The notes beneath the pieces are model-generated. The model was not told where the DNA came from, did no database searches, and was given only the letters and a program-made list of their open reading frames with translations. The translations under genes were made by a program, and so were the position numbers. From positions 1 to 60,125 of the forward strand of contig JBFMCP010000020.1 of assembly GCA_040754455.1 (NCBI GenBank): 60,125 nt of DNA, read 5' to 3'. This document shows, piece after piece, positions 1,300-33,835 of this stretch (its first letter is position 1; each line of letters begins with the position of its first letter). The DNA comes from Nitrospirota bacterium. Its GTDB lineage: Bacteria; Nitrospirota; Thermodesulfovibrionia; Thermodesulfovibrionales; Dissulfurispiraceae.

Positions 1300-2058
1300 C
1301 TACCCGATCCTCTGCGGGTGGGTATAGATGTTGAACCGGTCTGCCCTGATGAACCCGACGACCGTGACGCCGCTTCGCTCTGCGATATCCACGGCAAGGC
1401 TGGTGGGAGAGGTCCTGCTCGCTACCATTGGAATTCCCCATTTCGCGCACTTTGAGACGATTTCCGATGACAGTCTTCCGCTGGCGAGCATGATCTTCCC
1501 TTCAAAGGGAATGGTTTCGAGAATGGCGTAGCCGATAATTTTATCGACGGCATTATGCCGCCCGATATCCTCGGCAAGGCAATAGATCTCGTTGCCGTCG
1601 CTGAGGGCCGCACTATGGACGCAGCCGGTCATTTTATAGAGCTCCGACGCGTTCTGGAATTTCCTGAACACCTCTTTCAACGCCGCGGGCGTAATGCGAA
1701 AAGGGTCATCTATCTTTTGAAGGGCGAGCCGCTTGGGGAAGGTGATGCCGCCGATGCAGCCCGAGGTGATGACCGCACCATCCGTCGTCACCTCGCCTTC
1801 TGCAGGAATATCGACCATAACGTCTTCTCCATACTCGATCGTCATCCGCTCGGCGCACCAGCCGCCCTTGATGATGTCTTCGGTCATGAACATCCCCACA
1901 ACAAGCTCTCTGACCATGAGCGGCGTGCAGTAGAGGCTCAATACCTCTTTGCCGTTCACCGATACCTTCAACCGCCGCTCTATCGCGATAGAGTCTTCTT
2001 TTTCTTCACAGGAGGTTCCGTTGTTCTTGTAAATTTTTCTTTTTAAGTATCCTTCCAT
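1300..2058 (-). CDS. fdhD: formate dehydrogenase accessory sulfurtransferase FdhD
   Basis: ITSGC, TGCVHSAAL, EDIGRHNAVDKIIG and SGRLSSEIV motifs. Confidence 0.95.
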   Translation of the reverse strand: MEGYLKRKIYKNNGTSCEEKEDSIAIERRLKVSVNGKEVLSLYCTPLMVRELVVGMFMTEDIIKGGWCAERMTIEYGEDVMVDIPAEGEVTTDGAVITSGCIGGITFPKRLALQKIDDPFRITPAALKEVFRKFQNASELYKMTGCVHSAALSDGNEIYCLAEDIGRHNAVDKIIGYAILETIPFEGKIMLASGRLSSEIVSKCAKWGIPMVASRTSPTSLAVDIAERSGVTVVGFIRADRFNIYTHPQRIG

Positions 2059-2084: not shown

Positions 2085-3650
2085 CTACTTCCCACTTGTT
2101 TTTAATTGTTCATACATTTTTGCATTCTCGATCGCAGTCCCGCATACTTCCGCAAGTGAAGCAGAGAACGCGATATCCTCTTCCGAAAACTGGCGCGGCA
2201 TGTCGGTAAGCAACCGGAGCACGCCGATGACCCTGCCCCGTGCAATAATAGGAAGCGTCAGCATGCTTTTGATCCCCTCCTGCAAGGCCTCTTTCTGGTA
2301 GTGAATACGAGAGTCTGTCGCCACATCGTGAATGGCAACAGGCCTCGTCTGCAGCGCCTCCCGTACGTTCTCTTCCCTGTCCACCGGCCCCCGTGCAAGA
2401 TATTTCTCGCTCAATCCGTAAGCAGCGGCCAGTTCCAGTTTCTGCCCCGAGGCGTCGAGCAGCCTGATGGTAGCTGCCTTGAGGTGCATGGCCTCGGGCA
2501 GCTTTCTGACGATGAGATTGAGGACCTCATCCAGACGCAGGGTGGAACTGACTACCTTCGTTACCTCCTCGAATACGCGCAGGTATTCCCTTGCGCGAGT
2601 AACGGTGCTCTCAAAGGTCCGTGCATTGACAATAGCAATGGCAGCCTGTTCGGCAATGGCGGTCATAAACTTCAGATCCTCACTGCTGTATTTGACCGGC
2701 TCGGCGGTATACATCCTCAACACGCCGATCACCTCTTTCTTGAATCGTACCGGAATGGATAATATGCTCCGGATTCCCTCTGCTTCCGCTTCCTGCCGAT
2801 AACGGGCATTGGTATCCGAAACAATATCATAGATAGAGACCGCCTTGCCGTCGAGGGCATCGAAAATGCTTGGATCGTACGCAACAGGGCCTTTGTTGAC
2901 GTAGCGCTCGCTCAATCCATGGTGTGCCGCCACTTCGAGCTTCTGCGTCTCCTTGTTCATAAGCCGCAGCATGCTCGCTTTGACATTCATGACCTTCACG
3001 GCATTCGTCACTACCAAATTCAGCACCTCACTGAGCGAGAGGCTGGAGCTGATCGCCTTACAGATGTTCTGATAGCTTTCGAGATATATCTTCTTTTCGA
3101 AAATTGTTTCCGCGCAGTCCGGGCACATGCCGTGCGTGAACATACCGAACCCCTCGTCGGTCAGATACTTTTCTATCTGCTCCCATGTGTTGTCGTCCAT
3201 CCTGATCTTTTTGCACCATGCGCAAATCGGAACGAGCCGGTCTCTCATACGGCTTTTAATAACCGATTCGACGGCAGGGAAGAGGCGGGTGGTGTCCCTG
3301 AGGATCGAAATGACGCCGACGATTTTCTTGCCTTTGATCACCGGTGAGGCCTGCTCCTCGATAAACCGCTTCTCAGCATCCTTCCCCGAGAGGATCAGGC
3401 TCCTTGCAATCGCGTGGGACGACTGCAGGCAGGCAAGCGCAGGGTACTCGTAAGGGGGCAGGACCATCCCTGTTTCGTCCTCATAATGGAGGACCTCTTC
3501 GCAGCTCTTTTTCCTGGCCTGACCGGCAGTATAGCCGGTCAGGACCTCCGCACCCCTGTTCCAATACTCTATCTGCCGTTGGGTATTGATGTAATAGACG
3601 CCATCGTCAATGCTGTCGAGTATATCAAAATGACTGCCGACGAACATCAT
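2085..3650 (-). CDS. PAS + Cys4 motif + tandem GAF sensor protein with no output domain
   Basis: N-terminal PAS (IEYWNRGAEVLTGY); PICAWCKKIR...THGMCPDC; two similar GAF repeats (GLSERYVNKGPV and GLSEKYLARGPV, each ending AI.NA). Confidence 0.85.
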   Translation of the reverse strand: MMFVGSHFDILDSIDDGVYYINTQRQIEYWNRGAEVLTGYTAGQARKKSCEEVLHYEDETGMVLPPYEYPALACLQSSHAIARSLILSGKDAEKRFIEEQASPVIKGKKIVGVISILRDTTRLFPAVESVIKSRMRDRLVPICAWCKKIRMDDNTWEQIEKYLTDEGFGMFTHGMCPDCAETIFEKKIYLESYQNICKAISSSLSLSEVLNLVVTNAVKVMNVKASMLRLMNKETQKLEVAAHHGLSERYVNKGPVAYDPSIFDALDGKAVSIYDIVSDTNARYRQEAEAEGIRSILSIPVRFKKEVIGVLRMYTAEPVKYSSEDLKFMTAIAEQAAIAIVNARTFESTVTRAREYLRVFEEVTKVVSSTLRLDEVLNLIVRKLPEAMHLKAATIRLLDASGQKLELAAAYGLSEKYLARGPVDREENVREALQTRPVAIHDVATDSRIHYQKEALQEGIKSMLTLPIIARGRVIGVLRLLTDMPRQFSEEDIAFSASLAEVCGTAIENAKMYEQLKTSGK

Positions 3651-3777: not shown

Positions 3778-3810
3778 AAAAAAGACCCGATGGAACAACT
3801 GTCCATCGGG
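3778..3810 (-). terminator. intrinsic terminator after the oxidoreductase operon
   Basis: Stem CCCGATGGA/TCCATCGGG followed on the minus strand by a U-tract. Confidence 0.75.
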
Positions 3811-3832
3811 CCTTTCGCTCTTGCAATTATAC

Positions 3833-6304
3833 TTACTTCGCTGCTCCCATCTTTGCCACCTCCACCTTCACCGGAACCAGAGGAGTGCCCCCGTTCACCG
3901 CAGGATAGGTCAGCGTATTCACCTTTGCATGGGCAAAATGCGTGGGCGCGAACACCGTTCCCTCGGGCACCTCGTCGGAGATCATCGCTTTCAAGTATAC
4001 CTCTCCGCGCTTCGAGGCGACCTTCACGAAACTCTCATCATTGATGTGGAGCCTCTCCGCATCCTTGGTATTGATCTGCAGATAGGCATCGGCCACCACC
4101 GAATCGAGATTCTTGGAGAGCACCGAGAGCGCACCCGAGTGCTGGAGGATTCCCGCAGTGACCAGGAACATGGGATATTCGCCGCTCACCGGCTCTATGA
4201 CTTCGTACGAAACAGGAGTGAACGAAGGGCGGAACTCTTCTCTCTGCTCTTCGACGACCAGGTCCGCAATCGATGCCCTGATGGCCGTGAGGTCCTTCAG
4301 CCCCAGGTCCTTGTTCATGAGCCGTGCCAGGTTCCTGAAGATCTTCCAATCGGGAATGGACTGCCCGGTCTCGGCAATGAGCTTCGGAATCCTCTGGATA
4401 TTCCCCGAAGCGCTCATGAAGGTCCCTTCCTTCTCGGACCAGCTGGACGAGGGGAGGACAACATCAGCGAGCTTGGCGGTCTCATTAAGGAAGGCACTCT
4501 GCACGATAAGCAGCTCGAGGCCTTTCAATGTTTTTTCGACGGTCGAAGAGTCCTGGAATGATACAAGGGGATTGCCTCCCATTATATACATGGCCTTTAA
4601 AGCACCCGGCTTGTAGAGCATCTCATAGGCGTCTTTTCCTCCGGCGGTGGGCCGCACGCCGACCATCCACATGCCGAGGGTGTTGGAGAATTCGGCAGGG
4701 ATCTGGAGCGTCGAAGGCTCATCGCCCATCAGGAGCACCAGATTCGCTGCAGCGAGCAGCGTGTTCATGCTCTTTGCATTTTCCGAAGCGCCCGAAGTTA
4801 TCGCGAGCAGCCGCTTCCCTGCAGCAGCATAGGATTTTGCGAGCCTGGTGATCTCAGCTTCTGACAACCCGGTAGTCTTCGCGCTGTCCGCAAGGGTCAT
4901 CCCTTTGAGGCTACTGATGAGGGCATCGAAATGCGGCACCTTCGCTGCCTTCTCTTTGCTGTAGAGCCCCTCCTCGACGATCACCTTCATAATGCCGTTC
5001 AGGAGCGCAACCCCCGAGCCGGGCCTTGTCTGCAGCCACTGAGTGCTGTTCCGGGCAAGCTTGGTCTCCTTTGCATTGGCAACGACCAGCTGCGCACCTT
5101 CATGCTTCGCCTGTATGAACTTCAGGCCCCATACCGGGACACTCGAGGTGATATCGGAGTCGATGACCAGCAGGAAATCGGCTTTCAGCGGAGCATCCCA
5201 CTCGATCGGCAGTTTCTCGAGACCGAAGGCCGTTGCAATGGCCTTCTGCGCCTTTGCATAGCCGAACCGCGCTGCGGAATCAATGTTGTCGGTGCCGACA
5301 ACCTCCCGCATGAATTTCTGGAGCATGTAGTTGTCTTCCATGGTGCAGCGCTGCGATCCGATAGCGCCGATTGCGGACGGGCCATGCTTTGTCTTTATCT
5401 CATCGAGCTTCTTTGCCACATACCCGAGCGCCTCTTCCCAGGAGACCGAAACCAATTCGCCGTTCTTCTTTATGAGGGGAGCGGTGAGCCTGTTTTCGGC
5501 ATAGATGTAGTCGAAACCGAACCTGCCTTTGCTGCAGAGGTCACCGGCGTTGATGCCGACGCCGTCCTTGCCGCGCGCCCTCAGGATCCTCCCTTCCCTG
5601 ATGCTCACATTGGTGGTACAGCCGCAGCCGCAGTAGGGGCATATGGTCTCATGCTCGTCCATGAACCATACCCTCGAGCGGAAGCGGTAGGGTTTGCTGC
5701 CGAGAGCGCCCACGGGACAGGCATCGATGCACTGGCCACAGAACTCGCAGTCCAGCGTCTCTTCGAACGCCGGGCTTATCTTCGATTTGAATCCTCTGCC
5801 GATGATATTGATGGCGCCGACACCCTGATGCTCGTGGCATACCCGGACGCACTTGCCGCAGAGGATGCAGCGATTGGGGTTTCTCTCGACGATCGGCGCA
5901 TCGATCCTCTCGACGTCGCTCTTCCTCGACCCGGTGAACCTGCTCTGCGCCGGTCCGTACTTGAAGGCGAGGTCCTGCAGCGCGCACTCGCCTGCTTTGT
6001 CGCAGACCGGACAATCAAGCGGGTGGTGCACCAACAGTAGTTCCAGCACCGTCCTCCGCGCCTTCGCCAGTTTCGGCGTCTCCGTCTGGACCACCATACC
6101 GTTTTCCGCCGGTGAAGAGCAGGCGGCAAAGAGTCGCTTCTGGCCCTCTACCTCAACGACACAGAGCCTGCATCCGCCGTAGGGCCTCAATCTCTTGTCA
6201 TAGCAGAGATTCGGAATATAGATGCCATTCTTCTGCGCGGCCTGGAGGATCGTCGTCCCCGGCTCGACCTTTACATTTTTTCCGTTTATGGTAAGTTCTA
6301 TCAT
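3833..6304 (-). CDS. NuoG/SfrA/FdhF-like iron-sulfur subunit (BfuA-type) with a degenerate molybdopterin domain
   Basis: 2Fe-2S Cys motif, HxxxCxxCxxxxxC, two 4Fe-4S motifs, CPYCGCGC...C and a Mo-bisPGD-type fold; NIDSAARFGY stands where FdhF has D(C/H)CAR.(C/U)H. Confidence 0.9.
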   Translation of the reverse strand: MIELTINGKNVKVEPGTTILQAAQKNGIYIPNLCYDKRLRPYGGCRLCVVEVEGQKRLFAACSSPAENGMVVQTETPKLAKARRTVLELLLVHHPLDCPVCDKAGECALQDLAFKYGPAQSRFTGSRKSDVERIDAPIVERNPNRCILCGKCVRVCHEHQGVGAINIIGRGFKSKISPAFEETLDCEFCGQCIDACPVGALGSKPYRFRSRVWFMDEHETICPYCGCGCTTNVSIREGRILRARGKDGVGINAGDLCSKGRFGFDYIYAENRLTAPLIKKNGELVSVSWEEALGYVAKKLDEIKTKHGPSAIGAIGSQRCTMEDNYMLQKFMREVVGTDNIDSAARFGYAKAQKAIATAFGLEKLPIEWDAPLKADFLLVIDSDITSSVPVWGLKFIQAKHEGAQLVVANAKETKLARNSTQWLQTRPGSGVALLNGIMKVIVEEGLYSKEKAAKVPHFDALISSLKGMTLADSAKTTGLSEAEITRLAKSYAAAGKRLLAITSGASENAKSMNTLLAAANLVLLMGDEPSTLQIPAEFSNTLGMWMVGVRPTAGGKDAYEMLYKPGALKAMYIMGGNPLVSFQDSSTVEKTLKGLELLIVQSAFLNETAKLADVVLPSSSWSEKEGTFMSASGNIQRIPKLIAETGQSIPDWKIFRNLARLMNKDLGLKDLTAIRASIADLVVEEQREEFRPSFTPVSYEVIEPVSGEYPMFLVTAGILQHSGALSVLSKNLDSVVADAYLQINTKDAERLHINDESFVKVASKRGEVYLKAMISDEVPEGTVFAPTHFAHAKVNTLTYPAVNGGTPLVPVKVEVAKMGAAK

Positions 6305-6310
6305 TGTCTC

Positions 6311-8194
6311 TTATTCCTCCTTTCCCGCAGCCGCTGCAATGACCTTGCTGCCGAGCACATCCTGAGCCGGCAGATTCTTCAATGTTTCACGCATGCTCCG
6401 CGGCCCGATCTTCACCGAATCGAATTTGCACGCCTCATAGCAGGAGCGGCACTGGATGCACTTGGCCTGGTCGATGCGATGGGCGGCCTTCTTTTCTCCG
6501 GCTACTGCATTCTGCGGGCATACCCTCTTGCAGGCGCCGCAGCCTTTGCACTTCTCTTCATCGATATAGAAGGTGCAGAGGTCTTTGCAGACGCCGGTCT
6601 TGCACCACTGCTCGTTGATGTGGGATTCATACTCCTCCCTGAAGTATTTTATGGTCGTCAGGACAGGGTTCGGCGCGGTCTGCCCCAGTCCGCAGAGGGA
6701 GGTGGCGATGATGTCCTGCGACATATCCTGGAGCAGCTCGATATCGCCCTGCTTCCCTTTGCCTTCGGTGATGTTCGTCAGGAGGTCGAGCATGACGGTG
6801 GTGCCGATTCTGCAGGGGGGGCATTTGCCGCACGATTCCTCTGCAGTAAACTCGAGGAAGAACTTTGCCACGCTCACCATGCAGTTCAGGTCGTTCATGA
6901 CAACCATACCGCCCGAGCCGACGATTGCGCCGGTCTGCATAATGTCCTCATAGGTGACCGGGGTATCGAGAAGGTGTTCGGGGATACAGCCGCCGGAAGG
7001 TCCGCCGAGCTGCACTGCCTTGAACTTTCTTCCTTTTGGAATACCGCCGCCGATTTCGAAGATGACCTTTCTGAGCGGAATACCCATTGGCACTTCGATC
7101 AGACCGATGTTATTGATGGCGCCGCTCAGGGCAAAAACCTTTGTCCCCGTCGATTTCTCGGTCCCGAGGCTCCGGTACCAGTCGCCGCCGTTCAATATGA
7201 TTTGCGGAATGTTCGCATAGGTTTCGACATTATTGAGAACCGTAGGGCAATCCCATAAGCCCTTCACTGCGGGGAACGGCGGCCGCGGCCGCGGCATGCC
7301 GCGCTTTCCTTCGAGCGATCTCATGAGCGCTGTTTCCTCACCGCAGACGAACGCTCCGGCGCCCTGATATATCTCGATATCGAGATTGAACCCGGTGCCC
7401 AGGATGTTGTCGCCGAGGAGGCCGTGCTCCTTTGCCTGGTTGATGGCGAGCTGCAGCCGGGAGACCGCCAGGGGGTACTCGGCCCTGACGTAGATATATC
7501 CCTTGTTGGCGCCGATCGCCTTTGCACCGATGATCATTCCTTCGAGGACGACGTGGGGGTCGGCTTCCATGATGCTTCTGTCCATGAACGCGCCGGGGTC
7601 GCCCTCGTCACCGTTACAGAGGATGAATTTCCGATCGCCTTTGACCTTTGCACAGAACTCCCACTTCATGCCAGTAGGAAAGCCTGCGCCGCCCCTTCCG
7701 CGGAGCCCCGAGCGCTTCATCTCTTCTATGATCTGCCACTGGGTCATCTCGGTGAGAGCCTTTGCTGCGGCCTGATAGCCGTCGCGTGCGATATACTCTT
7801 CGATCTTTTCAGGGTCGATCAGGCCTTTGTTCCGCAGTGCCCTGAGGACCTGCAGGTTGAAGAAGGGAATGTCCTTGGTAGCCGGGATGGTCTGCTTCTT
7901 GATAGGCTCCTTGTAGAGAAGCTTTTGTACGGGCCGCCCTTTAATGAAATGCTCCTCCACAATGAGCGGAAGATCATTGACGGTTACTTTCTCATAGAAA
8001 ATACCATCGGGGAGCACAGTCATGACCGGCCCCTCTGCACAGAATCCGTTGCAACCGGTGAGCACCACGCTTATTTCATTCTGAAGGCCTCTCTTTTTTA
8101 ATTCTTCATCGAGGGCATTTTTTATCTTCAAGCTTCCGCCTGCAATGCAGCCGGTTCCCCCGCAGAGCATGACATTGGTACGGTAGTTACTCAT
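6311..8194 (-). CDS. NuoF/HydB-type FMN/NADH-binding subunit (BfuB) with N-terminal Trx-like 2Fe-2S and C-terminal 2x4Fe-4S domains
   Basis: GLRGRGGAGFPTG, EGDPGAFMDR, GAGAFVCGEETAL, GGPSGGC, ESCGKCPPCRIG and two CxxCxxCxxxC motifs. Confidence 0.95.
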   Translation of the reverse strand: MSNYRTNVMLCGGTGCIAGGSLKIKNALDEELKKRGLQNEISVVLTGCNGFCAEGPVMTVLPDGIFYEKVTVNDLPLIVEEHFIKGRPVQKLLYKEPIKKQTIPATKDIPFFNLQVLRALRNKGLIDPEKIEEYIARDGYQAAAKALTEMTQWQIIEEMKRSGLRGRGGAGFPTGMKWEFCAKVKGDRKFILCNGDEGDPGAFMDRSIMEADPHVVLEGMIIGAKAIGANKGYIYVRAEYPLAVSRLQLAINQAKEHGLLGDNILGTGFNLDIEIYQGAGAFVCGEETALMRSLEGKRGMPRPRPPFPAVKGLWDCPTVLNNVETYANIPQIILNGGDWYRSLGTEKSTGTKVFALSGAINNIGLIEVPMGIPLRKVIFEIGGGIPKGRKFKAVQLGGPSGGCIPEHLLDTPVTYEDIMQTGAIVGSGGMVVMNDLNCMVSVAKFFLEFTAEESCGKCPPCRIGTTVMLDLLTNITEGKGKQGDIELLQDMSQDIIATSLCGLGQTAPNPVLTTIKYFREEYESHINEQWCKTGVCKDLCTFYIDEEKCKGCGACKRVCPQNAVAGEKKAAHRIDQAKCIQCRSCYEACKFDSVKIGPRSMRETLKNLPAQDVLGSKVIAAAAGKEE

Positions 8195-8206
8195 TGTTCC
8201 TCCTCA

Positions 8207-8590
8207 TTAATATGAAGTTTCGCAGCCCATGACAAGTGCATACTCCTCGACCGGCTGCCCCTTCATAATATGCTCGCTGAATATCTTCCTCATCTTCTCG
8301 TCATTGAGATACACATATTTCACCGGCGGCTGATTGAGGAGCTCGACGGTCACCATCGGCTCCTTGCTGCAGAATCCCGCACAGCCTGAGGTGACGATTG
8401 CTATATCCTTCTTGTTATTCTTGTTCATCTCATCGAGAAGGGCGTCCATCACTTTCCGTGCACCGGCGGCGATTCCGCAGGTCCCCATATGCACGGTGAC
8501 CTTTACGGTGCTGCCGCCCTCTCTCAGGGTAAGCATTGCCTTGTACTCTTCCTTTATCTTCTTTAAATCATCAACGGTAAGTCTGGGCAT
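8207..8590 (-). CDS. thioredoxin-like [2Fe-2S] ferredoxin (HndB/HydD-like)
   Basis: VHMGTCGIAAGA...TSGCAGFCSKEP; ATG 8590 has a GGAGG SD. Confidence 0.9.
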   Translation of the reverse strand: MPRLTVDDLKKIKEEYKAMLTLREGGSTVKVTVHMGTCGIAAGARKVMDALLDEMNKNNKKDIAIVTSGCAGFCSKEPMVTVELLNQPPVKYVYLNDEKMRKIFSEHIMKGQPVEEYALVMGCETSY

Positions 8591-8620
8591 ATCCTGACCT
8601 CCTTTGGTCAAATTATTTTG

Positions 8621-8708
8621 GAATTCAGGAGCCAGGAGTCTGGAGCCAGAATTACGCATGAATGCTTCCCGCTTTTATTCTGACTTCTGGGTTCTGACTT
8701 CTGAATTC
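8621..8708. repeat. inverted heptamer-period repeat hairpin
   Basis: GAATTCAGGAGCCAGGAGTCTGGAGCCAGAAT ... ATTCTGACTTCTGGGTTCTGACTTCTGAATTC. Confidence 0.8.
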
Positions 8709-8717
8709 TCATGTTCA

Positions 8718-9575
8718 TTAGTATTCCTTGAGCAAATCCAGCACCTTGACCGGATTGATCGATCCGTGCGTATCCTTATCGATCACCACGACCGGCGCCA
8801 ACCCGCAGGCACCGAGACAGCGGACCGTTTCGAGAGAGAACTTCTTGTCGGTCGTAATGCCGCCGACATCAATCTTCAATCCGTCGCTGAGTTTCTTCAC
8901 GATCTCTTCTGCGCCTTTGACGTAGCAGGCGGTCCCGAGGCAGACCCTGATATTGTGTTTGCCTTTAGGTTTCATGGTGAAGAACGAGTAGAAGGAGACG
9001 ACACCGTGGACCTCGCTTACCGGCACCTTCAGGCCCTTCGCAATGTGACGCTGTACGACGGGGGGGAGATAACCGATCAGCTCCTGCGCCTCCTGGAGCA
9101 CGGGAATCAGCGCGCCCGGCTTTCCCCTGTAGCGCTTTATGATCTCATCCAGCTTTGCCGCCGCCTCTTTCGTGTAGTCCTCATCCTGGGGCTCAGTCGT
9201 GACACCCTTTTTCTTAAACTCCACGGCTTTGGTCGTCACCTCGACGAGCAGCGCGGGGGAAAACGGCTTCGGCAGGTAATCGACAATTCTCATGCTCAAT
9301 GACTCTTTTATGCTTTCCTGAGAGGGATATCCGGTGATGACCACGATATTGACCTCGGGGTCCTTCGTCCGCACCTGTTTCATAAATTCGAGGCCGTCCA
9401 TCTCAGGCATCTTGAGATCGGTAATAATAAGGTCGTAATTGTTCTTATCAAGGAGGCTCAAGGCCTCTTTTGCAGATGATGCGGTGTTGACCCCGTATCC
9501 CTCAGGACCGAGGATCCTTTCACAGCTGGTTCGCACAATCTGTTCATCATCGACTACAAGGACATTGCCCTTCAT
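8718..9575 (-). CDS. response-regulator receiver fused to a NuoE/HydC [2Fe-2S] subunit
   Basis: REC (VDD, IITDLKMP, ITGY, KPF) followed by NuoE (LIPVLQEAQ, SFYSFF, VCLGTACYVKG, RCLGACGLAP). Confidence 0.92.
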   Translation of the reverse strand: MKGNVLVVDDEQIVRTSCERILGPEGYGVNTASSAKEALSLLDKNNYDLIITDLKMPEMDGLEFMKQVRTKDPEVNIVVITGYPSQESIKESLSMRIVDYLPKPFSPALLVEVTTKAVEFKKKGVTTEPQDEDYTKEAAAKLDEIIKRYRGKPGALIPVLQEAQELIGYLPPVVQRHIAKGLKVPVSEVHGVVSFYSFFTMKPKGKHNIRVCLGTACYVKGAEEIVKKLSDGLKIDVGGITTDKKFSLETVRCLGACGLAPVVVIDKDTHGSINPVKVLDLLKEY

Positions 9576-9587
9576 TCCTTATCCTCC

Positions 9588-10352
9588 TTATCCCTTTATT
9601 GGATTCACTCGTGCAAGCCACAGGTACCATCCATCGCAGAGATGGTCTTTCATGAGTGAGCATATGGCGTCATTGGCGTGCCCGTTCACTTCCTTGATCA
9701 CCCCGGTCATCGGCGCCTTGATCTCGTAGATCTTGCCGTCGCCCGAGAGCAGTTTTGCAAAGGTCTCGCCGTTGGCAATCGCCTTAACGTTCCTCATCAT
9801 ATCGACATACAGCATCTGACCGCTGACGAGGAAATGCCGCACATCAACGCCTATCTCCCATGAGCCGTCTTTTGCCGGACGCGCCCAGGTGCCGTCCTTG
9901 TAGAACATCGTCTGGCTGTCCATATCGGATGCCGGGACAATGTACTCCTTGAACTGGTCGATATACGCCTTTTTAAGGATCCACCCCCTCTTGTCAAAGA
10001 CCCGCTTTGCCACATTCATCATGAAGTCGGGCGTAAAGGGTTTCTCGAGGTACTCGAAGGCGCCGAGCCGGATGGATTCCTTTGCATCCTCCAGCGTCGG
10101 ATACCCGGTTATGACGACGACATCCGCCTTGGGCTGTATGGTCTTTGCCTCCTGGATCACGGTAAGACCGTACACATCAGGGAGTCTGATGTCGGTGATA
10201 ACCAGGTCGAACTCGTCTTTAGAAAGCCTCTCGACAGCACTATGGCCGTCTTCCACGGTGAATACGGTATACCCTTCGCCGCCCAGTATGCGCTTGCAAC
10301 TGAGGCCGACAACGGGATCGTCATCCACCACCAATATTCGCTGCTTATCCAT
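9588..10352 (-). CDS. response-regulator receiver fused to a glycine-cleavage-H (GcvH)-like domain
   Basis: REC (VDDD, VITDIRLP, ITGY, KPF); C-terminus GTWAR...EIGVD...GETFA...APMTGVIKEVN...GWY follows the GcvH pattern; ATG 10352 has an SD. Confidence 0.8.
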   Translation of the reverse strand: MDKQRILVVDDDPVVGLSCKRILGGEGYTVFTVEDGHSAVERLSKDEFDLVITDIRLPDVYGLTVIQEAKTIQPKADVVVITGYPTLEDAKESIRLGAFEYLEKPFTPDFMMNVAKRVFDKRGWILKKAYIDQFKEYIVPASDMDSQTMFYKDGTWARPAKDGSWEIGVDVRHFLVSGQMLYVDMMRNVKAIANGETFAKLLSGDGKIYEIKAPMTGVIKEVNGHANDAICSLMKDHLCDGWYLWLARVNPIKG

Positions 10353-10398
10353 GGTTCCCCCTTTCAATAGGTGTTAACTGCATCAATACCCATTAAAA

Positions 10399-10414
10399 AG
10401 CAATATCGATGCCA
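10399..10414 (-). promoter_or_regulatory. sigma54 (-24/-12) promoter of the REC/oxidoreductase operon
   Basis: Minus strand reads TGGCATCGATATTGCT, matching TGGCA-N6-TTGC. Confidence 0.8.
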
Positions 10415-10465
10415 GGGTAGAAAAACATGAAATTTTAACAGCTTACACCTTCTGAGCGGTTGAAG

Positions 10466-10576
10466 TGTATAACTTTTTTATACGGTAGCTCGTCCCTGTT
10501 GCTGCAGACCTCAAGCTGAAACTCCTTGAAAAACTGCTCTTGTCGCACGCTGCAGAACTGTATATTTTTTCCAGAC
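10466..10576. promoter_or_regulatory. candidate enhancer-binding-protein sites
   Basis: Palindrome GTATAA-N5-TTATAC at 10467-10483 and related TGTATATTTTTTCCAGAC at 10559-10576, upstream of the sigma54 site. Confidence 0.5.
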
Positions 10577-23679: not shown

Positions 23680-24073
23680 GCTCCACCGCGCTCAGATACT
23701 CTCTGTGTATGTGTTTGAAGTCTTCAAGTTCTTTTATGGTGCGGAATGCAAGGTCATACAGCGCATCCTCGTCCCTACAGAATAACACCTTTCCTTCCCT
23801 TAATACCCGCTGCTTTATGTACAGCGGAAGCTGTTGAAATACATTAATATCCGCATCAGTGATGACAGCGTAGCTCATTTTTTTACAAAAGAGCGCGGCA
23901 GGCTCATAGGTGCGCGGCATGAGCACGATGCATACATCAATATCAGATGATAAGGTACTCTCCCCTCGCGCTGCGCTGCCGAACAGAACCACGGCTAGAA
24001 TAGCCGGATCAGCCCCAGCCTTCCGGAGCACACTGCCCACGTTTGGATAACTTTTGTCGAAATCTTTCTGCAT
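23669..24073 (-). CDS. minimal nucleotidyltransferase (MntA-type antitoxin)
   Basis: LFGSAARG...SDIDV (GS-x10-DxD); LPLYIKQRVLREG. Confidence 0.9.
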   Translation of the reverse strand: MQKDFDKSYPNVGSVLRKAGADPAILAVVLFGSAARGESTLSSDIDVCIVLMPRTYEPAALFCKKMSYAVITDADINVFQQLPLYIKQRVLREGKVLFCRDEDALYDLAFRTIKELEDFKHIHREYLSAVEHAR

Positions 24074-24559
24074 GTTTTTATCGTACCACGACGATAAAGG
24101 GGGTGTAAATTACTCTGTGTTCAGAAGCGGAGAATGCCTATACAGTCTCGGCATCCATAAACTGCATTCGTGTAAGGCTCCTTGTAAAGGACGCTCTTCG
24201 CAAGCAACTATTCATGCGAACCCTGTTGGATGACGCTTCCTCAGAGGATGAGGGCCGAGGGGTTCCTCAGAATTGCCTCTTATGGTATCATAATAAGCAC
24301 TCTGATATCAGAGTGTTTGGAAAAAGCAGTGAGCACGATTCTTTGCTGTTTGCAGCAGTTTTCATAAATGTGCTATCGTTAAAGCTATTTGAATTACACT
24401 GTTCGTAACAGGGCATAAATTGTAATAGTCACACAAAAATTTACTACAAATATAGGGAACTGTTAGTGGTTAGAAATGCCATTAAGATGTGGGGAAGTGT
24501 GGGGCCCTATGATAATGCTTAAACAGTAACTTATTTGGTGAGTAAGGGGATTGAGAGCA

Positions 24560-25195
24560 ATGGAGAAGTTGGAAGAGTCGTTTAGCTGGAGCAGGTTTTA
24601 TTCCTATCGTAAAAAATTCCGGAGGGAGCATCCTTCTGTTTTTGGTCTAAAGATAAGAAAAAAACTACTTGATGTAGTGGTTGAAGAGGTAAAAGGTGAG
24701 GAAAGGATTCTCGATGTAGGAGCTTCCGATAGAGTGTTTGGAGAGAAGGTCCTTGCTAAGTTCCCCCGCATCGTTTACAAAACAATGGATATAGATCGGG
24801 AACAGGCTCACGATTATTACAGTCTGGATGACATTTCAGAGCAATTCGATGTGATTATTTTGTCCGAGGTTATAGAACATCTTAGCTTTAGCGATGGCAT
24901 GTCAATGCTCCAGAGGCTTCGTGAACTGCTGAACAGTAATGGTAAAATTATCATTTCTACCCCTAACCTTCATCATCCTCATCGGTATTGGGACTCTGAC
25001 CACAGGACACCGTACCGTTATGATGAAATCAGTGGGGCGCTTCTTTCAAAAGGATTTAGGGTAGAGAAAGTTTATAGAATCTATAATGATCAGTTCCTGC
25101 GGCGATTCTTCCGTATATATGTGATGTCACACCTCCATAAGTACCTCGATATTGACTTCGCCAAATCAATTGTAGTTGTTGCAGCGAAAGAGTGA
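24560..25195 (+). CDS. class I SAM-dependent methyltransferase
   Basis: ILDVGAS, FDVIILSEVIEHL, GKIIISTPN. Confidence 0.85.
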   Translation: MEKLEESFSWSRFYSYRKKFRREHPSVFGLKIRKKLLDVVVEEVKGEERILDVGASDRVFGEKVLAKFPRIVYKTMDIDREQAHDYYSLDDISEQFDVIILSEVIEHLSFSDGMSMLQRLRELLNSNGKIIISTPNLHHPHRYWDSDHRTPYRYDEISGALLSKGFRVEKVYRIYNDQFLRRFFRIYVMSHLHKYLDIDFAKSIVVVAAKE

Positions 25196-26184
25196 CCATA
25201 GCTTTTTTAGTAACAAGACTTGATGATCCCAGCGTCCGCTACCGGGCATTGCAATTTTTCCCCTTCTTGGAGCGGTCAGGACACACTCCAAAGGTCTTCG
25301 TGATTCCCCGGAGTATATGGGGCCGGCTGCGTCTTTTCAGTAAAATGAAGAACTATGATCTTGTCGTGCTGCATAGAAAGCTCCTCGATTCTGTCGGGTG
25401 GCATGTGCTCAGAAGAAGTTGCAAACGACTTGCTTATGATTTTGACGATGCGCTGATGTTTAAAGATTCAAAAAGTGCACAGCACTACTCCCGTCGACGG
25501 ACTTCCAGATTTAATAGAATCGTGAGAGGTGCTGATTTTGTGATAGCAGGAAATGAATACCTTAAAACATTTGCGGCAAAGGAAAATAAAAGGACGTCTA
25601 TTATACCGACATCGATTGATATGTGTAGGTATGAGGAGCGACCGGCCAAAGCGGCATCAAATCAGATTACTCTTGGCTGGATAGGCTCTCGATCAACACT
25701 CTTTTACCTCGAGAGAATGAAGCATGTCTGGGATGCGCTTTATGACCGGTATCCACAATTGAGATTGATGATTGTCTCCAATGCATTTTTCGATTGTGAC
25801 AGGATGCCGGTTACAAAGAAAGCGTGGAGCTATGAGGAAGAGATTGGAGATCTGCACACGTTCGACATAGGCGTAATGCCGCTCACCGATGACGTTTGGG
25901 CTAGGGGGAAGTGTGGATTCAAACTCCTGCAATATATGGCGGTAGGTGTTCCCGCTGTATGTTCACCGGTAGGGATGAATAAAGAGATCGTAGCGGACGG
26001 AACAAATGGCTTTTGGGCTGAAAGCGAAGAGGAGTGGGTAGACAAGGTCGGTAGGCTTATCGAAGACCCTCAGCTGAGGGCCGATATGGGCAGAAGGGCA
26101 AGAGAGACTGTCATTGAGCGCTATTCTGCCGAGGTGAGTAGTAAAAAAATGGTAGAATTATTTACTGTTATGTCAGCTATTTAG
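25192..26184 (+). CDS. GT4-family glycosyltransferase
   Basis: YDFDDA, GWIGS, GKCGFKLLQYMAVGVPAVCSPVG. Confidence 0.9.
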   Translation: MTIAFLVTRLDDPSVRYRALQFFPFLERSGHTPKVFVIPRSIWGRLRLFSKMKNYDLVVLHRKLLDSVGWHVLRRSCKRLAYDFDDALMFKDSKSAQHYSRRRTSRFNRIVRGADFVIAGNEYLKTFAAKENKRTSIIPTSIDMCRYEERPAKAASNQITLGWIGSRSTLFYLERMKHVWDALYDRYPQLRLMIVSNAFFDCDRMPVTKKAWSYEEEIGDLHTFDIGVMPLTDDVWARGKCGFKLLQYMAVGVPAVCSPVGMNKEIVADGTNGFWAESEEEWVDKVGRLIEDPQLRADMGRRARETVIERYSAEVSSKKMVELFTVMSAI

Positions 26185-26192
26185 CAGAAAAG

Positions 26193-27209
26193 GTGCGTGT
26201 ATATCTTATGAGACAGCTTTCGAAGATACCATATTATTGGGGACGCTATAGGAACAGAAAGTTAAACAGACAGGAGTTTAAACAGCTAAAGAGTGTTCTA
26301 CATTCCTTCCCGTACATCGCATATATCGATCCCACTAATATATGTCCCCTCTCCTGCCCTCTCTGCCCGACTGGAAACCGATCAAGCACACATCCCCGCG
26401 GCCTGATGTCCTTCGATACCTTTCAGAAAATTTACGACCAGATAGGCCCATATCTCTATGAACTCCACCTTTACAACTGGGGAGAGCCGTTTGTGAATCG
26501 TGCCCTTGTAGAGATGATCGAATATGCCAAGAGAAAATACGACCCCAAAATCATTATTAGCTCCAATCTGGCGGGGCTTTCTGAAAAAAGGGCGAGAGCA
26601 TTGGTCCATCCGGATATCGATCTGCTGAATGTCTCAGTTGACGGTGCTACTCAGGAAACTTATGGGAAATACAGAGTGGGGGGAGACCTCAAACAGGTAC
26701 TAGAGACCCTCGCCATTATGGCTGAAACCAAAAAGGCTTCAGGTTTGAGAACTCCTGTGCTTAGATGGCAATTTATCCCCATGAAGCACAATGAGCATGA
26801 GATAGAGACAGCAAGGAGATTGGCAAAGAGCTTGGGGGTAGAGTTTCGCATCCATCGCGTAAGGCTGAATATATCCGATTTTGATAAAAAGGAAATCGAA
26901 CAGGTAGTAAAAGAGAGCGAAGAGTGGATGCCCCAAAACCCGAAATATGTTCGTTTAAGTAATAAGGGGGAGCTTGAGAACGTATGCAAATTTCTATGGG
27001 ATAGAGTTGTTTTTAACTGGGATGGCTCGGTCGTGCCGTGCTGCCAGATATATACCTATGAGGATGTTTTTGCAAAGAGCTTTGAGGTGGACTTTGCAAG
27101 TATCTGGAATGGATCGGCCTATACGAAGGCACGGGAGATTTTCATCGGCAAACGAGCCGAGGACAATTTCATATGTCAGAAATGCGTCGATAACAAGAGT
27201 GCATTCTAG
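26193..27209 (+). CDS. radical SAM/SPASM-twitch protein
   Basis: CPLSCPLC, WGEP, and C-terminal C...PCC...CxxC. Confidence 0.9.
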   Translation: MRVYLMRQLSKIPYYWGRYRNRKLNRQEFKQLKSVLHSFPYIAYIDPTNICPLSCPLCPTGNRSSTHPRGLMSFDTFQKIYDQIGPYLYELHLYNWGEPFVNRALVEMIEYAKRKYDPKIIISSNLAGLSEKRARALVHPDIDLLNVSVDGATQETYGKYRVGGDLKQVLETLAIMAETKKASGLRTPVLRWQFIPMKHNEHEIETARRLAKSLGVEFRIHRVRLNISDFDKKEIEQVVKESEEWMPQNPKYVRLSNKGELENVCKFLWDRVVFNWDGSVVPCCQIYTYEDVFAKSFEVDFASIWNGSAYTKAREIFIGKRAEDNFICQKCVDNKSAF

Positions 27210-27227
27210 CAATACCCCGTCTCTATA

Positions 27228-28082
27228 ATGAATCTATTGCGTGAATATACATCGTTAGATGTAGGCAGTGAATGGAGAATCTTTTTTGCAGAATCGCATC
27301 TCGGTGCATCCATAACTGAGCAAATAGAGTCTTTTCTTATATCAGGTGCAGCCCCAGAGAACTGGGTCAGGCTTAAAAGCTCAGAAAATACAAATGTATG
27401 GAAATTCCCTGCGAATAATAGATGGTTTGTTTTCAAAGAATATCTTAAAAGAGGCCCCTTCGACGGAATCAAAGCCCTTATAAGGGGCTCAAGGGCGAGA
27501 AGAGCATGGATGAACGGAAGGACGCTCAATCAAGAAGGTCTCCCTACCCCTGAGATAGTGGGTTTTGGAGAAAGACTATCTTTCCCTTTTGTGAAGCGGG
27601 ATTTTCTTGTAACAGAGTTTATTCCTGACGCTCTCGGCATCTATACTTTTCTGAATGAAATTTTGACCTTCCCCCTTACGAAAGAGCAGGTAACGTTGAA
27701 ACGAGCCGTTATCCGCTCGTTTGGCGCTTTTATCGGGAGACTCCACGCAAAAGGTTTTGCGCATGGGGACCTCCGGCTCGACAATATTCTTATTACCGGG
27801 TGGAGAGGGAAGCAATATAAATTCTTCCTTATTGATAATGAAAGGAATAGGTATTTCTCGAAAGGGATTCCTGACCTGTATCGCATGATAAACCTTGTGC
27901 AGCTTAATATGCTTGTTTTGCCCCAGGTAACCTTTGCTGACCGCATTCGTTTTTTCAGGGCGTACCTGACTGAAAACCATGAACTTATCCCTGTTGAAAA
28001 AGAGTGGATGCGTAACGTATTCTTAAAGACACGAAAGCGATTGCAGAAGAAAATGCCAGGGATATGGGAGTCCTCGCGATGA
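27228..28082 (+). CDS. lipopolysaccharide kinase (Kdo/WaaP/InaA family)
   Basis: GSRARRAW, LVTE, HGDLRLDNIL, LIDNE. Confidence 0.85.
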   Translation: MNLLREYTSLDVGSEWRIFFAESHLGASITEQIESFLISGAAPENWVRLKSSENTNVWKFPANNRWFVFKEYLKRGPFDGIKALIRGSRARRAWMNGRTLNQEGLPTPEIVGFGERLSFPFVKRDFLVTEFIPDALGIYTFLNEILTFPLTKEQVTLKRAVIRSFGAFIGRLHAKGFAHGDLRLDNILITGWRGKQYKFFLIDNERNRYFSKGIPDLYRMINLVQLNMLVLPQVTFADRIRFFRAYLTENHELIPVEKEWMRNVFLKTRKRLQKKMPGIWESSR

Positions 28083-29200
28083 AAAGAGTATTGCATCTGA
28101 TCAAAGAATACACAGGGAACTATCCCTTGCTAAATGAGCTCGTGAAAGGGCTACCAAGAGACAGGTATGGATCTATCGTTTGCTATCTAAGTGGTAGATC
28201 GGATGGGAAGAATGAACTGGAGTCGATTGCTTTGGAGGTAAGCTACCTAGGGTTCAGTAGAAAGTACACTAAGCACATTAGACCCGGACTAATAGTTGCT
28301 CTTGCGAAGCTAGTGCGAAGCAGAAATATCGATATTATTCATTGTCACAGACACAAGGCTACCATCATTGGAACTGTTGCGGCAATGCTTGCGGGGACTC
28401 CTCATGTAGTTTCGCACGTTCACGGACTTGCTCGCACCAGATCATTAGGAAGGCGCTTTACCAATTGGATGATTTTCAAACGGATGAAGAGAATTGTTGC
28501 TGTTTCAGATACGGTCAAGCAGGACATTGTCAGTAGTAATTGGGGAGTAGATTCATCAAAGGTAGTCACGGTCAGAAATGGTATAAATCTGCGACTGGTT
28601 GACCAGCGCGCAATAAGCAAAAGAGAAGCCCGCTTGAGGCTTGGAATTACTGATAACGACTTCGTTTTCGGTACTGTGGGGAGATTGACTAATACAAAAG
28701 GGCATGCTTATCTGCTCACGGCATTTTCTGAAATAAGAGAGCGAATACGCTCAGCACGGCTTTTGCTTATTGGCGATGGTCCTCTGAGAAGTTCCTTAGA
28801 GCAGAGGGCTGATGAGTTGGGCATATCGGCATACGTCTCTTTCCTTGGATATAGAAACGATGTATTGGAACTACTCAGAGGGATCGATGTCTTTGTTTTT
28901 CCATCCCTTGCTGAGGGATTACCATTGGCTCTCCTTGAGGCTATGGGATCACGACTTCCTGTTATTGCATCTCGGGTAGGGGGAATTCCGGAGATCCTGG
29001 GCGAAAGTAACTGCGGCATCCTCATACCGCCAAAAGATGTCAATGCATTAAGTGCCGGCATGAGCACCATAGGCCTCCTCAATGAGGAGGCTAGGAGAGA
29101 GATGGGTAATGCGGCAAGGAAAAGAGTTGAGGATATGTTTACCGTTGAGCAAATGAGTAAGGCCCTGGAAGCTGTTTATGAATCTATCGATTCAAAATAG
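28079..29200 (+). CDS. GT4-family glycosyltransferase
   Basis: VGRL..KGH, EGLPLALLEAM, SRVGGIPE; ATGA overlap with the upstream gene. Confidence 0.92.
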   Translation: MKRVLHLIKEYTGNYPLLNELVKGLPRDRYGSIVCYLSGRSDGKNELESIALEVSYLGFSRKYTKHIRPGLIVALAKLVRSRNIDIIHCHRHKATIIGTVAAMLAGTPHVVSHVHGLARTRSLGRRFTNWMIFKRMKRIVAVSDTVKQDIVSSNWGVDSSKVVTVRNGINLRLVDQRAISKREARLRLGITDNDFVFGTVGRLTNTKGHAYLLTAFSEIRERIRSARLLLIGDGPLRSSLEQRADELGISAYVSFLGYRNDVLELLRGIDVFVFPSLAEGLPLALLEAMGSRLPVIASRVGGIPEILGESNCGILIPPKDVNALSAGMSTIGLLNEEARREMGNAARKRVEDMFTVEQMSKALEAVYESIDSK

Positions 29201-30116: not shown

Positions 30117-30121
30117 GGGTA

Positions 30122-31327: not shown

Positions 31328-31887
31328 GCCTAAAGAAATTTCGCTGGTTCATTATACATACTGTCCATTACCTTCGCTGGCGGTGGCGATTCCATAGGTT
31401 TGGATGGGGATCACGCCTCTATAAATATGACGCACTGCATAAGCCCGGGGCAATTAGCATAGGCAGAAATGTCACTATTATGAAGGGAGCACGCCTCGAA
31501 GCTGTAGGGAAATGGGATAAGATGTCACCAAAGATAACCATTGGTGATGGCACCTCAATTCAGTTTTATTTTCACTGCGGATCGGCGAGGTCGGTTAGAA
31601 TAGGAAAAGATGTGTTGATTGCGGGGAGGGTCTTTATTACAGATCATGATCATGTACTTGATCATCCCGTTTTTCCACCCAGCAAGTGTCGAGACTCGCA
31701 TGCGGAACCGGTCGTTATTGAGGATGGCGTTTGGCTTGGTGAGGGCTGCATTATTCTCAAAGGTGTAACCATAGGTGAACGTGCCGTGGTTGGAGCAAAT
31801 GCAGTGGTGACAAAGAATGTACCGCCATTTACCATAGTGGCAGGGGTCCCAGCCAAAGAAATCCGCAAGATACAGATGCATAAATGA
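31324..31887 (+). CDS. hexapeptide-repeat (LbH) acyltransferase
   Basis: ITDHDH, VVIEDGVWLG, GANAVVTK, AGVPAK. Confidence 0.9.
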   Translation: MSLKKFRWFIIHTVHYLRWRWRFHRFGWGSRLYKYDALHKPGAISIGRNVTIMKGARLEAVGKWDKMSPKITIGDGTSIQFYFHCGSARSVRIGKDVLIAGRVFITDHDHVLDHPVFPPSKCRDSHAEPVVIEDGVWLGEGCIILKGVTIGERAVVGANAVVTKNVPPFTIVAGVPAKEIRKIQMHK

Positions 31888-31984
31888 GGAGGCTGGCGAG
31901 AATGATATTATTGAACAAGCAGGTAACTGCGCATAAATAATCTATGCTCGAGGATAGAAAAAGCAGTTAAAGTCTGAGGGAAAT

Positions 31985-33699: not shown

Positions 33700-33835
33700 G
33701 ACGCACCGCAGGGGCAGCTCAGGAAAGCACCGCAGGATGGTGTCAGTATAAGTAGCTGTAATTGTAATTTTTCTCCACCACATATTATCATGTCATCATA
33801 AAAAATTATAAAGGAATATCCTTATTGTTTATTGC

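Follow-up and report, generated by a model that had tools for sequence, protein, structure and literature searches.

A Bfu-family flavin/iron-sulfur core with built-in two-component receiver domains in an operon of a Nitrospirota bacterium

The window analysed here, 60,125 nt of contig JBFMCP010000020.1 from an uncultured, sulfate-reducer-like Nitrospirota bacterium (assembly GCA_040754455.1), carries on its minus strand, in the region 3833..10576, an operon that is predicted to encode the flavin/iron-sulfur core of a Bfu-family enzyme of the bifurcating type. The core itself is known; what is new, as far as the literature searched shows, is that it comes with built-in two-component receiver (REC) domains, one fused to the NuoE-type subunit BfuC (REC-NuoE) and one to an H-protein-like domain (REC-GcvH). 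Five open reading frames (ORFs) lie head to tail between a sigma-54 promoter element and an intrinsic terminator (Table 1), transcribed in the order REC-GcvH, REC-NuoE, a small thioredoxin-fold protein, HydB (BfuB) and BfuA. A preliminary description of this DNA had claimed five co-oriented genes with such boundaries, and this layout was borne out with two start codons corrected: REC-GcvH begins with the ATG at 10352 and not with the upstream TTG of the longest ORF, and for the third gene Met24 (8590) is the probable start, as orthologs align only from residue 22-24. Bfu enzymes set the NADH/ferredoxin balance in anaerobes and are treated as unregulated at the protein level in the literature searched. 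In this operon, signalling from a sensor kinase might act directly on an enzyme of energy coupling.

Evidence for the bifurcating type comes from HydB, in which the Pfam domains Complex1_51K, SLBB and NADH_4Fe-4S are joined by an N-terminal thioredoxin-like ([2Fe-2S]) domain and a C-terminal 2x[4Fe-4S] domain (Fer4-family matches at residues 542-592). Its closest solved relative is 7t2r_B, labelled 'NiFe hydrogenase subunit B' (E 2e-248, colinear over residues 1-594), followed by 7q4v_B and 8a6t_B, beta subunits of bifurcating-type hydrogenases (top three E 2e-248 to 3e-226). After those come NfnB (9n5u_B) and 8oh5_B/9bov_B (E 4e-217 to 2e-214), 8oh5 being what we take to be the Stn transhydrogenase, and canonical NuoF structures match much more weakly (E 1e-114 or worse). 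Every motif quoted in the preliminary description is present, with EGDPGAFMD at residue 197, GAGAFVCGEE at 278, GGPSG at 397, DLNC at 435, SHI at 524, WC at 530, GVC at 534 and two CxxCxxCxxxC motifs at 549 and 579, which bears out the features claimed for a bifurcating beta subunit. The marks described for such subunits, A/E-x-M near the NADH site, F and not Y near the flavin mononucleotide (FMN), and GGPSG in the SLBB region (Losey 2020, PMC7311640), are present as A202-F-M204, F282 and GGPSG 397-401 and are invariant in 19/19 family sequences. As an internal control, NuoF of the complex I encoded in the same genome (contig C27) reads T-F-K and Y at these places and lacks both GGPSG and the C-terminal ferredoxin domain, while three other HydB paralogs of this genome show the bifurcating pattern. 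In the solved NiFe enzyme there is an extra His/Cys-ligated [2Fe-2S] site, B2, with the ligands C438, C/T476, H525, C531 and C536 (Schut et al. 2022, PMC9304861); the corresponding positions in HydB, read off its gap-free alignment to 7t2r_B, are C438, T476, H525, C531 and C536, again invariant in all 19 sequences and missing from the canonical NuoF on C27.

In the definition of the Bfu family (Schut et al. 2022, PMC9304861), BfuB combines the NuoF FMN domain, SLBB and the NuoF [4Fe-4S] region with a 2x[4Fe-4S] domain of ferredoxin type, BfuC has a NuoE-type [2Fe-2S] domain, and BfuA carries, as a minimum, ferredoxin-type domains of the [2Fe-2S] and the [4Fe-4S] kind. The definition is given as InterPro entries, which we matched to their Pfam counterparts, and the domain sets of all three subunits are found in the operon together with the B2 site. 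Together with the marks of Losey and the B2 ligands, this upholds at the sequence level the earlier reading as an NAD(H)/ferredoxin-coupling complex of Bfu type, and we infer that the enzyme bifurcates.

BfuA contains, according to Pfam, Fer2_4, NADH-G_4Fe-4S_3, Fer4_Nqo3, Molybdop_Fe4S4, Molybdopterin and Molydop_binding domains, that is, a chain of a [2Fe-2S], a His-ligated [4Fe-4S] and two further [4Fe-4S] clusters and the Molybdop_Fe4S4 cluster, followed by a full-length domain resembling formate dehydrogenase (FDH) and NuoG. The best matches in the PDB are alpha subunits of NAD-dependent formate dehydrogenases. The residues for formate chemistry are gone: 'arvCHsp' of FdsA (6tg9_A) aligns to 'arfGYak' in BfuA, so that the metal-ligand Cys and the His are replaced, and in an alignment of BfuA and 16 orthologs to the selenocysteine (Sec) FDH of the same genome, an invariant G-Y stands at the U-H position (17/17). 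Likewise, the FDH Arg motif PLRGQNNVQG aligns to PAEFSNTLG (PAxxSNTxG as the form shared by the 17 sequences), and about 30 residues downstream of it are deleted in the BfuA family alignment. Mean identity to the BfuA of the window is 56% in the FDH-like C-terminal part and 76% in the iron-sulfur part. Formate dehydrogenase was considered as the third activity and rejected, as Sec/Cys, His and Arg are all lost. BfuA is therefore best described as a predicted scaffold with a catalytically dead FDH-like domain. The preliminary description had postulated a third redox partner without naming it; with the catalytic residues gone from BfuA, the third redox site would lie outside this operon and the partner would have to come in trans. 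The label 'NuoG/SfrA-like' used there holds insofar as the catalytic residues of FDH are missing. Moreover, BfuA is colinear with mycobacterial NuoG 8e9g_G (residues 1-792 against 15-773, E 6e-81) and thus NuoG-like over its full length, and its residues 2-648 are colinear with 7t2r_A, the A subunit of the NiFe bifurcating hydrogenase.

Compared with HydABC and the NiFe-HydABCSL enzyme (7t2r), the domain sets of BfuA, BfuB and BfuC and all cluster ligands including the His/Cys site B2 match, and the A subunit has a dead FDH-like domain in both this operon and 7t2r_A. In contrast to them, this operon is devoid of a hydrogenase, FDH or other catalytic subunit and adds the N-terminal receiver on BfuC, the gene for the receiver fused to an H-protein-like domain, and the sigma-54 promoter. 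NfnABC (9n5u; described in PMC11829005 and PMC12018979) and the 8oh5/9bov complexes possess similar BfuB homologs, and their A subunits align over the iron-sulfur and FDH-like parts; however, those A subunits span 960-1180 aa and include an NADPH-binding module, which is absent from the 823-aa BfuA.

The receiver on BfuC keeps its phospho-acceptor residues in nearly all relatives. REC-NuoE combines Response_reg (1.5e-30) with 2Fe-2S_thioredx (PF01257, 1.9e-50), and its receiver residues D9, D10, D53, T81, Y100 and K103 are kept in 22/23 sequences. Such strict retention of six positions suggests that phospho-acceptance is under selection. In the NuoE part, the cluster ligands C212, C217, C253 and C257 never vary, and the linker between the two domains (residues ~115-140) is not conserved. 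In REC-GcvH (Response_reg 5e-26), the receiver residues D10, D11, D12, D54, T82 and K104 are invariant in 15/15 sequences. The preliminary description had wired the complex directly into two-component signalling; the wiring is supported by the intact receiver residues and by a kinase and an NtrC-type activator beside the operon in relatives, while the gating of enzyme activity by phosphorylation is something that we infer. In one representative protein, P0176 (578 aa), residues 278-552 match REC-NuoE and another stretch is matched as well, so that either a REC-GcvH/REC-NuoE fusion in a single chain or a mis-called gene may be present.

The C-terminal domain of REC-GcvH has the fold of the glycine cleavage H-protein (GcvH). 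Its GCV_H match is marginal (24.6 bits against a cut-off of 22.2), and the full-length model is mediocre (predicted local distance difference test, pLDDT, 76; predicted template modelling score, pTM, 0.49). Folded alone, the domain reaches a pLDDT of 85, and its 21 best structural matches in the PDB are all H-proteins (template modelling score about 0.6). The fold is common to both, but the lipoyl-lysine position of the genome's true H-protein is an invariant Gly in 16/16 sequences of the REC-GcvH alignment, with a variable residue after it (K/N/H/Q/A), and the domain is fused to a receiver here. Because the lipoyl lysine is absent, REC-GcvH is not a lipoyl carrier, and a lipoylated H-protein as the third substrate was rejected for the same reason. 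The H-protein-like part gave low scores only (0.78) to GcvH clusters in the Protein Atlas, and the relatives found by a word-based search are all REC-fused, about 254 aa long and from the same clade. A second GCV_H match near a HydB paralog on contig C11 had suggested a link between H-proteins and Bfu enzymes; this was rejected, as the matched protein is a pyruvate carboxylase subunit and the match its biotinyl domain. The small third protein scores below threshold for 2Fe-2S_thioredx (20.9 bits, cut-off 24.8), and its only conserved cysteines are C61, C93 and C97, which leaves the earlier name 'Trx-like ferredoxin' poorly founded; we describe it as HndB/HydD-like.

Expression of the operon seems to be governed by sigma-54. 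The -24/-12 element TGGCATCGATATTGCT ends 47 nt ahead of the REC-GcvH ATG. Nothing else in the window matches the consensus; by chance 0.11 matches would be expected, and shuffling produced one or more in 10 of 100 trials. Similar elements (at most 2 mismatches, GG and GC retained) were found 40-86 nt upstream of the first gene in 10/22 related loci, compared with 19/1045 background windows of 300 nt, and REC-GcvH is the first gene in all ten. About 50-85 nt upstream of the -24 element, a dyad, GTGTATA-N7-TATACAC, is shared by the window, L001 and L002, the three closest sequences, and is not conserved in the more distant L017 and L019; it is a candidate activator-binding site. At the 3' end of the operon, the terminator hairpin begins 17 nt past the BfuA stop codon.

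The likely signalling partners were found in relatives. L004, L006 and L007, which lack REC-GcvH, encode in one orientation a HAMP-HisKA-HATPase kinase, HATPase_c_2, DRTGG, PHP and short HATPase_c proteins and a stand-alone REC, and then REC-NuoE (the kinase was identified by Pfam in L004 and L007 and by a tblastn match in L006; the HATPase_c_2 protein was seen in L004 and L007). L156 has the order kinase, REC, NtrC-type activator (REC-Sigma54_activat-HTH_8), REC-GcvH, REC-NuoE, small protein, HydB and BfuA, with HATPase_c_2, DRTGG and PHP genes after BfuA. Orthologs of all these signalling genes, with 50-69% identity, are located on contig C3 of the genome studied here (C3:17993-25325). Among them are two kinases (C3:18382-19953 and C3:19962-21302), orthologs of those flanking the operon in L004, L007 and L156, and the NtrC-type activator (C3:23919-25325), whose ortholog lies directly upstream of the operon in L156. 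A predicted chain from kinase to activator to sigma-54 promoter is thus well supported by synteny, and the same kinase might also phosphorylate both receivers encoded in the operon. Genes for HATPase_c_2, DRTGG, PHP and short HATPase_c proteins recur as an accessory group with the operon or its kinase (L004:7161-9882, L007:7127-9682, L156:15211-16793 and C3:21343-23557 of the present genome). Among the papers listed by a literature search on DRTGG, hydrogenase, PHP and histidine kinase, none has the word DRTGG.

Among the 80 loci returned by a search of one-genome-per-species contigs with REC-NuoE, 24 (L001-L024) are close relatives, and each of these bears the label Nitrospirota, Thermodesulfovibrionales or Dissulfurispiraceae. 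In 23 of these 24, REC-NuoE is followed by the small thioredoxin-fold gene, HydB comes next in 21 (contigs end earlier in L005 and L012) and then BfuA in 19 (contigs end inside HydB in L001 and L019); about 2.4 kb separate HydB from BfuA in L020. This is the kind of search for REC+NuoE beside HydB that the preliminary description had proposed as a check. REC-GcvH lies upstream in 15/24 loci; in L016, L020, L021 and L024 the contig ends too near for its presence to be judged. Across the phylum, full-length matches to REC-NuoE occurred in 53 of 301 sampled genomes (the present one included), all in families f1-f17 (e.g. f1 16/23, f6 7/8, f9 5/5 and f15 5/5, with f5 at 0/11 and f11 at 0/7). A further 48 matches in family f21 covered the NuoE half only, and there was one partial match in the 301-genome sample. 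In a collection of 5.8 billion proteins, the best 120 clusters all carry both Pfam domains under machine-given names such as 'NAD(P)H-dependent oxidoreductase subunit E'. The fusion is also present in Zixibacteria and KSB1: one metagenome-assembled genome (MAG) of each (L105:4504-10562 and L106:532-10672, respectively) encodes an HndB-like protein, REC-NuoE, HydB and a short BfuA of about 215 aa, followed by HdrA-like and MvhD genes and, in L106, also by HdrB/C-like (CCG) and two more HdrA-like genes. These heterodisulfide reductase (Hdr)-like neighbours suggest that the receiver-fused core serves other partners elsewhere, hence at least two kinds of partner.

For the Nitrospirota operon, gene neighbourhoods point to complex I. 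Genes for nuo subunits lie beside the operon in 6/26 related loci, in two separate subclades. In L004, L006 and L007, nuoA-D is followed directly by nuoH, about 0.7 kb after nuoD and with no room for nuoEFG, and in L021, L156 and L159 the adjoining nuo operon has nuoABCDEF. The genomes of L006 and L007 contain one full nuo operon and an Ech-like cluster only, with no canonical NuoF (~420 aa), and that of L004 has a second nuo operon with NuoF; L017 comes from a complete chromosome, on which roughly 20 kb separate the HydB gene from a nuo operon that includes NuoF. This recalls Nuo-Bfu, a predicted 14-subunit complex I of hosts including Nitrospirae, in which BfuABC, encoded inside the nuo cluster, replaces the NuoEFG head and which is described as a prediction, never isolated (Schut et al. 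2022, PMC9304861). Both have a Bfu-type head and a full-length NuoG-like A subunit, and orthologous operons lie beside a nuoEFG-less nuo operon in 3/26 loci (L004, L006 and L007). In contrast to Nuo-Bfu, the genes studied here form a separate and separately regulated operon, the genome's own nuo operon is distant and includes NuoEFG, and receivers are not part of the Nuo-Bfu description in the text of that paper. As far as synteny tells, the link to complex I is real at the level of the family and putative for this window itself. The membrane/quinone arm of complex I is accordingly a tentative choice of trans partner, the leading candidate but one to which we give distinctly less than an even chance.

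Taken together, we slightly favour a signal-controlled NADH/ferredoxin module of Bfu type, possibly serving as an alternative input head of complex I. BfuB would bind NAD(H) at its FMN and ferredoxin at its C-terminal clusters, BfuC would carry a mobile [2Fe-2S] cluster, and NADH and reduced ferredoxin would be co-oxidised at BfuBC, or the reverse, with electrons leaving via the BfuA cluster chain to a docked partner in trans. Transcription would depend on sigma-54 and the NtrC-type activator, and the same two-component system would probably phosphorylate the receivers of BfuC and REC-GcvH. Movement of the BfuC C-terminal domain is central to the proposed Bfu cycle (Schut et al. 2022, PMC9304861), and a receiver that is joined to BfuC through a variable linker would be in a good position to influence it; once phosphorylated, it might alter the movement of the cluster domain or the assembly of the module, and REC-GcvH might be a further, non-essential adaptor that responds to phosphorylation. 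With the membrane arm of complex I as partner, the module would be a signal-controlled, confurcating (NADH plus ferredoxin) alternative to the NuoEFG head. A bolder version, which we consider unlikely, has the two-component system choose the input head of complex I at the protein level, between NADH-only NuoEFG and the receiver-fused, confurcating BfuABC, with phosphorylation of both the BfuC receiver and the H-protein-like adaptor controlling docking or BfuC movement. That receivers can be built into such enzymes is known from mycobacterial complex I, where the orphan response regulator MSMEG_2064/Rv3143 is a structural subunit (Liang et al. 2023, PMC10068793; Plocinska et al. 2022, PMC9274095). 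In both systems a receiver is encoded with an NADH-oxidising enzyme, and there it is physically part of the complex; however, the actinobacterial protein is a free single-domain subunit on NuoB of a non-bifurcating complex I, whereas here the receiver is fused to NuoE.

Several observations weigh against this reading, and part of them would suit a soluble, stand-alone enzyme. There is no nuo gene in the 60-kb window by Pfam, and 20/26 loci are without nuo genes in the flanks that were fetched. The only full nuo operon of the genome (C27) has its own NuoE, NuoF and NuoG, and therefore the module would be at most an alternative head. Two apparent exceptions in this genome did not hold: a second NuoH/NuoD-like cluster (C23), considered as an 11-subunit complex I without EFG, is a small Ech-like set, and a sixth 'NuoF-like' match (C3) is RnfC. 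Complex I would be uninvolved if the operon encoded a plain NADH:ferredoxin oxidoreductase or a Bfu core with another trans partner; this could be a hydrogenase, a heterodisulfide reductase of the Hdr type or the kind of NADPH module that Stn/Nfn-Bfu enzymes have. Solved relatives whose A subunit has a dead FDH-like domain do work in soluble reactions (7t2r_A 'NiFe hydrogenase subunit A', 8oh5_C/9bov_A and 9n5u_A 'NfnA'), and the REC-NuoE core lies beside Hdr-like genes in L105 and L106. We nevertheless regard a soluble enzyme as rather unlikely, given that no hydrogenase, Hdr or GltD-like gene was found in the operon or conserved beside it in the 12 loci scanned with Pfam, that the genome's own NfnAB-like pair and NiFe hydrogenases are located elsewhere in their own contexts, and that the adjacency to nuo recurs in two separate subclades.

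Other points against the favoured signal-controlled module concern the receivers and BfuA. By Pfam, the window encodes neither a kinase nor a sigma-54 activator, and the cognate pairing therefore rests on orthology with relatives. REC-GcvH was not found in five loci whose upstream flank spans 9.9 kb or more (L003, L004, L006, L007 and L023), and therefore it is not an obligatory part; in L024 the end of REC-NuoE is present, and the 7.5 kb that remain of the locus contain no other gene of the operon. In L023, the receiver has lost D10, D53, T81 and K103, showing that the fusion can persist without phospho-acceptance. That locus (L023:9971-10852, a Dissulfurispiraceae MAG) reads N, Y, S, F and A at five receiver positions, with the acceptor Asp changed to Tyr, Thr to Ser and Lys to Ala; it has PHP and short HATPase_c genes upstream and FdhD directly after BfuA. 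Its degenerate receiver would fit a role of the receivers without any gating of catalysis, either as phosphate sinks or branch points within an NtrC-type system that controls transcription only, or as phosphorylation-independent structural or assembly domains. Distant fusions such as P0262 and P0324 without the acidic pair, the Thr or both would fit as well, and the systems of the relatives have several stand-alone and fused receivers per one or two kinases, as is typical of branched phosphotransfer. Such a non-gating role nonetheless seems improbable to us, as the six receiver positions are kept in all but one REC-NuoE and in every REC-GcvH sequence, and covalent fusion to a subunit that is proposed to move in catalysis would be hard to square with a role as a sink alone. 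As for BfuA, it scores higher to an FDH alpha subunit (9wxb_B, 394 bits) than to any NuoG (8e9g_G, 276 bits), and it might still bind a pterin or guanine-nucleotide cofactor, in which case the complex would be a Mo/W- or nucleotide-dependent enzyme with a small molecule as third substrate. FdhD adjoins the operon in the window, L002, L003 and L016, and the distant L023 has it immediately next to the operon. In L008, BfuA is followed by a ThiF/MoeB-like gene, the cluster of L017 has DsrE-like genes on its flanks, and several FDH-like motifs of the cofactor-binding domains are kept (e.g. VvLPa.sW.EK.G.F and HSG.lS). A bound nucleotide is conceivable because mycobacterial NuoG holds a purine nucleoside triphosphate at its vestigial cofactor site (PMC10068793). 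Against a cofactor-dependent enzyme, which we find very improbable, stand the invariant replacement of the Sec/Cys ligand, His and Arg and the deletion after the Arg motif; moreover, FdhD is not adjacent in most loci, and this only genome copy (by tblastn) has two real clients in the TGA-containing FDH genes on C42 and C17.

The preliminary description knew of no characterised enzyme with this architecture, and our literature search likewise found no paper describing a receiver fused to NuoE, HydC, HndA or BfuC. The terms 'response regulator' and 'receiver' are absent from the text of Schut et al. 2022 (PMC9304861), whose supplementary figures, outside the search, may already place such sequences in an unassigned clade. 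A whole class of sulfate-reducer-like Nitrospirota shares the receiver-fused arrangement, and at least two further phyla have it with a different partner. If phosphorylation alters the activity or docking of the module, this would be a new way of steering energy conservation, and the proposed conformational step of Bfu enzymes would become experimentally addressable with BeF3- and acceptor-Asp variants. The recurrent nuo neighbourhood, in some cases without NuoEFG, would offer a concrete test system for the predicted Nuo-Bfu complex I, and if head-switching were true, phosphotransfer would for the first time be seen to rewire a bifurcating enzyme and a respiratory complex directly.

Table 1. 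Features of the operon and its immediate surroundings in the 60,125-nt window
Feature	Position	Strand	Details and basis
REC-GcvH-like protein	9588..10352	-	254 aa; Pfam receiver and H-protein-fold domain
REC-NuoE fusion (BfuC/HydC-type [2Fe-2S] subunit with N-terminal receiver)	8718..9575	-	285 aa; Pfam
HndB/HydD-like thioredoxin-fold protein	8207..8659	-	Longest ORF 150 aa; about 127 aa from Met24
HydB/BfuB, FMN/NAD(H) subunit	6311..8194	-	627 aa; Pfam, solved relatives
BfuA, FDH/NuoG-like large subunit	3833..6304	-	823 aa; Pfam, alignment to FdsA
Strong intrinsic terminator ending the operon	3780..3816	-	15-pair stem with 7 G-C pairs, T run
Sigma-54 -24/-12 promoter element TGGCATCGATATTGCT	10399..10414	-	Only match to TGGCAYN5TTGCW in the window
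Candidate activator-binding dyad CCGTATA-N7-TATACAC	10465..10485	-	Block shared with the closest relatives; putative function
FdhD neighbour (context)	1300..2058	-	Pfam
PAS-GAF-GAF neighbour, separately transcribed (context)	2085..3650	-	521 aa; Pfam

Further Bfu-type genes were noted elsewhere in the genome. Two HydB paralogs of 787 and 792 aa, on C2 (G000:C2:35000-50000, L103) and C11 (G000:C11:54000-72000, L102), end in a C-terminal CBS pair. The one on C2 comes after carbon monoxide dehydrogenase (CODH)/acetyl-CoA synthase (ACS) beta and CODH genes, together with NuoE, a small iron-sulfur protein and a short BfuA, and resembles a Codh-Bfu cluster, while the one on C11 is isolated and adjoins genes for carbonic anhydrase and phosphoenolpyruvate carboxylase. 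Fusions of regulatory domains to Bfu subunits thus seem to be a theme in this genome. On C42 (G000:C42:1-10000, L104), a stand-alone CBS-pair protein, NuoE, a HydB with 54% identity to that of the window and an FDH alpha subunit with an in-frame TGA form a cluster that is likely a bifurcating selenocysteine FDH, and its FDH is a probable client of the FdhD encoded in the window. In the long-read MAG of L006 (L006:11349-15709), HydB and BfuA are each split over at least two frames, by either assembly errors or true frameshifts.

In the window itself, the PAS-GAF-GAF protein next to the operon leaves no room for an output domain and is kept between BfuA and FdhD in L002, L003 and L016; it may be a ligand sensor that works by protein contacts. 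Two large ORFs (743 and 753 aa) without a Pfam match lie on the minus strand in the region 53145-58455, directly downstream of a CbbQ/NorQ-type AAA+ gene (57634-58455). Finally, the stretch at ~24000-34000 has a GC content of 0.42-0.45, compared with 0.51-0.58 elsewhere, and is rich in genes for glycosyltransferases, Kdo/WaaP-kinase, O-antigen ligase, radical SAM/SPASM proteins and methyltransferases; it is probably a lipopolysaccharide or O-antigen island.

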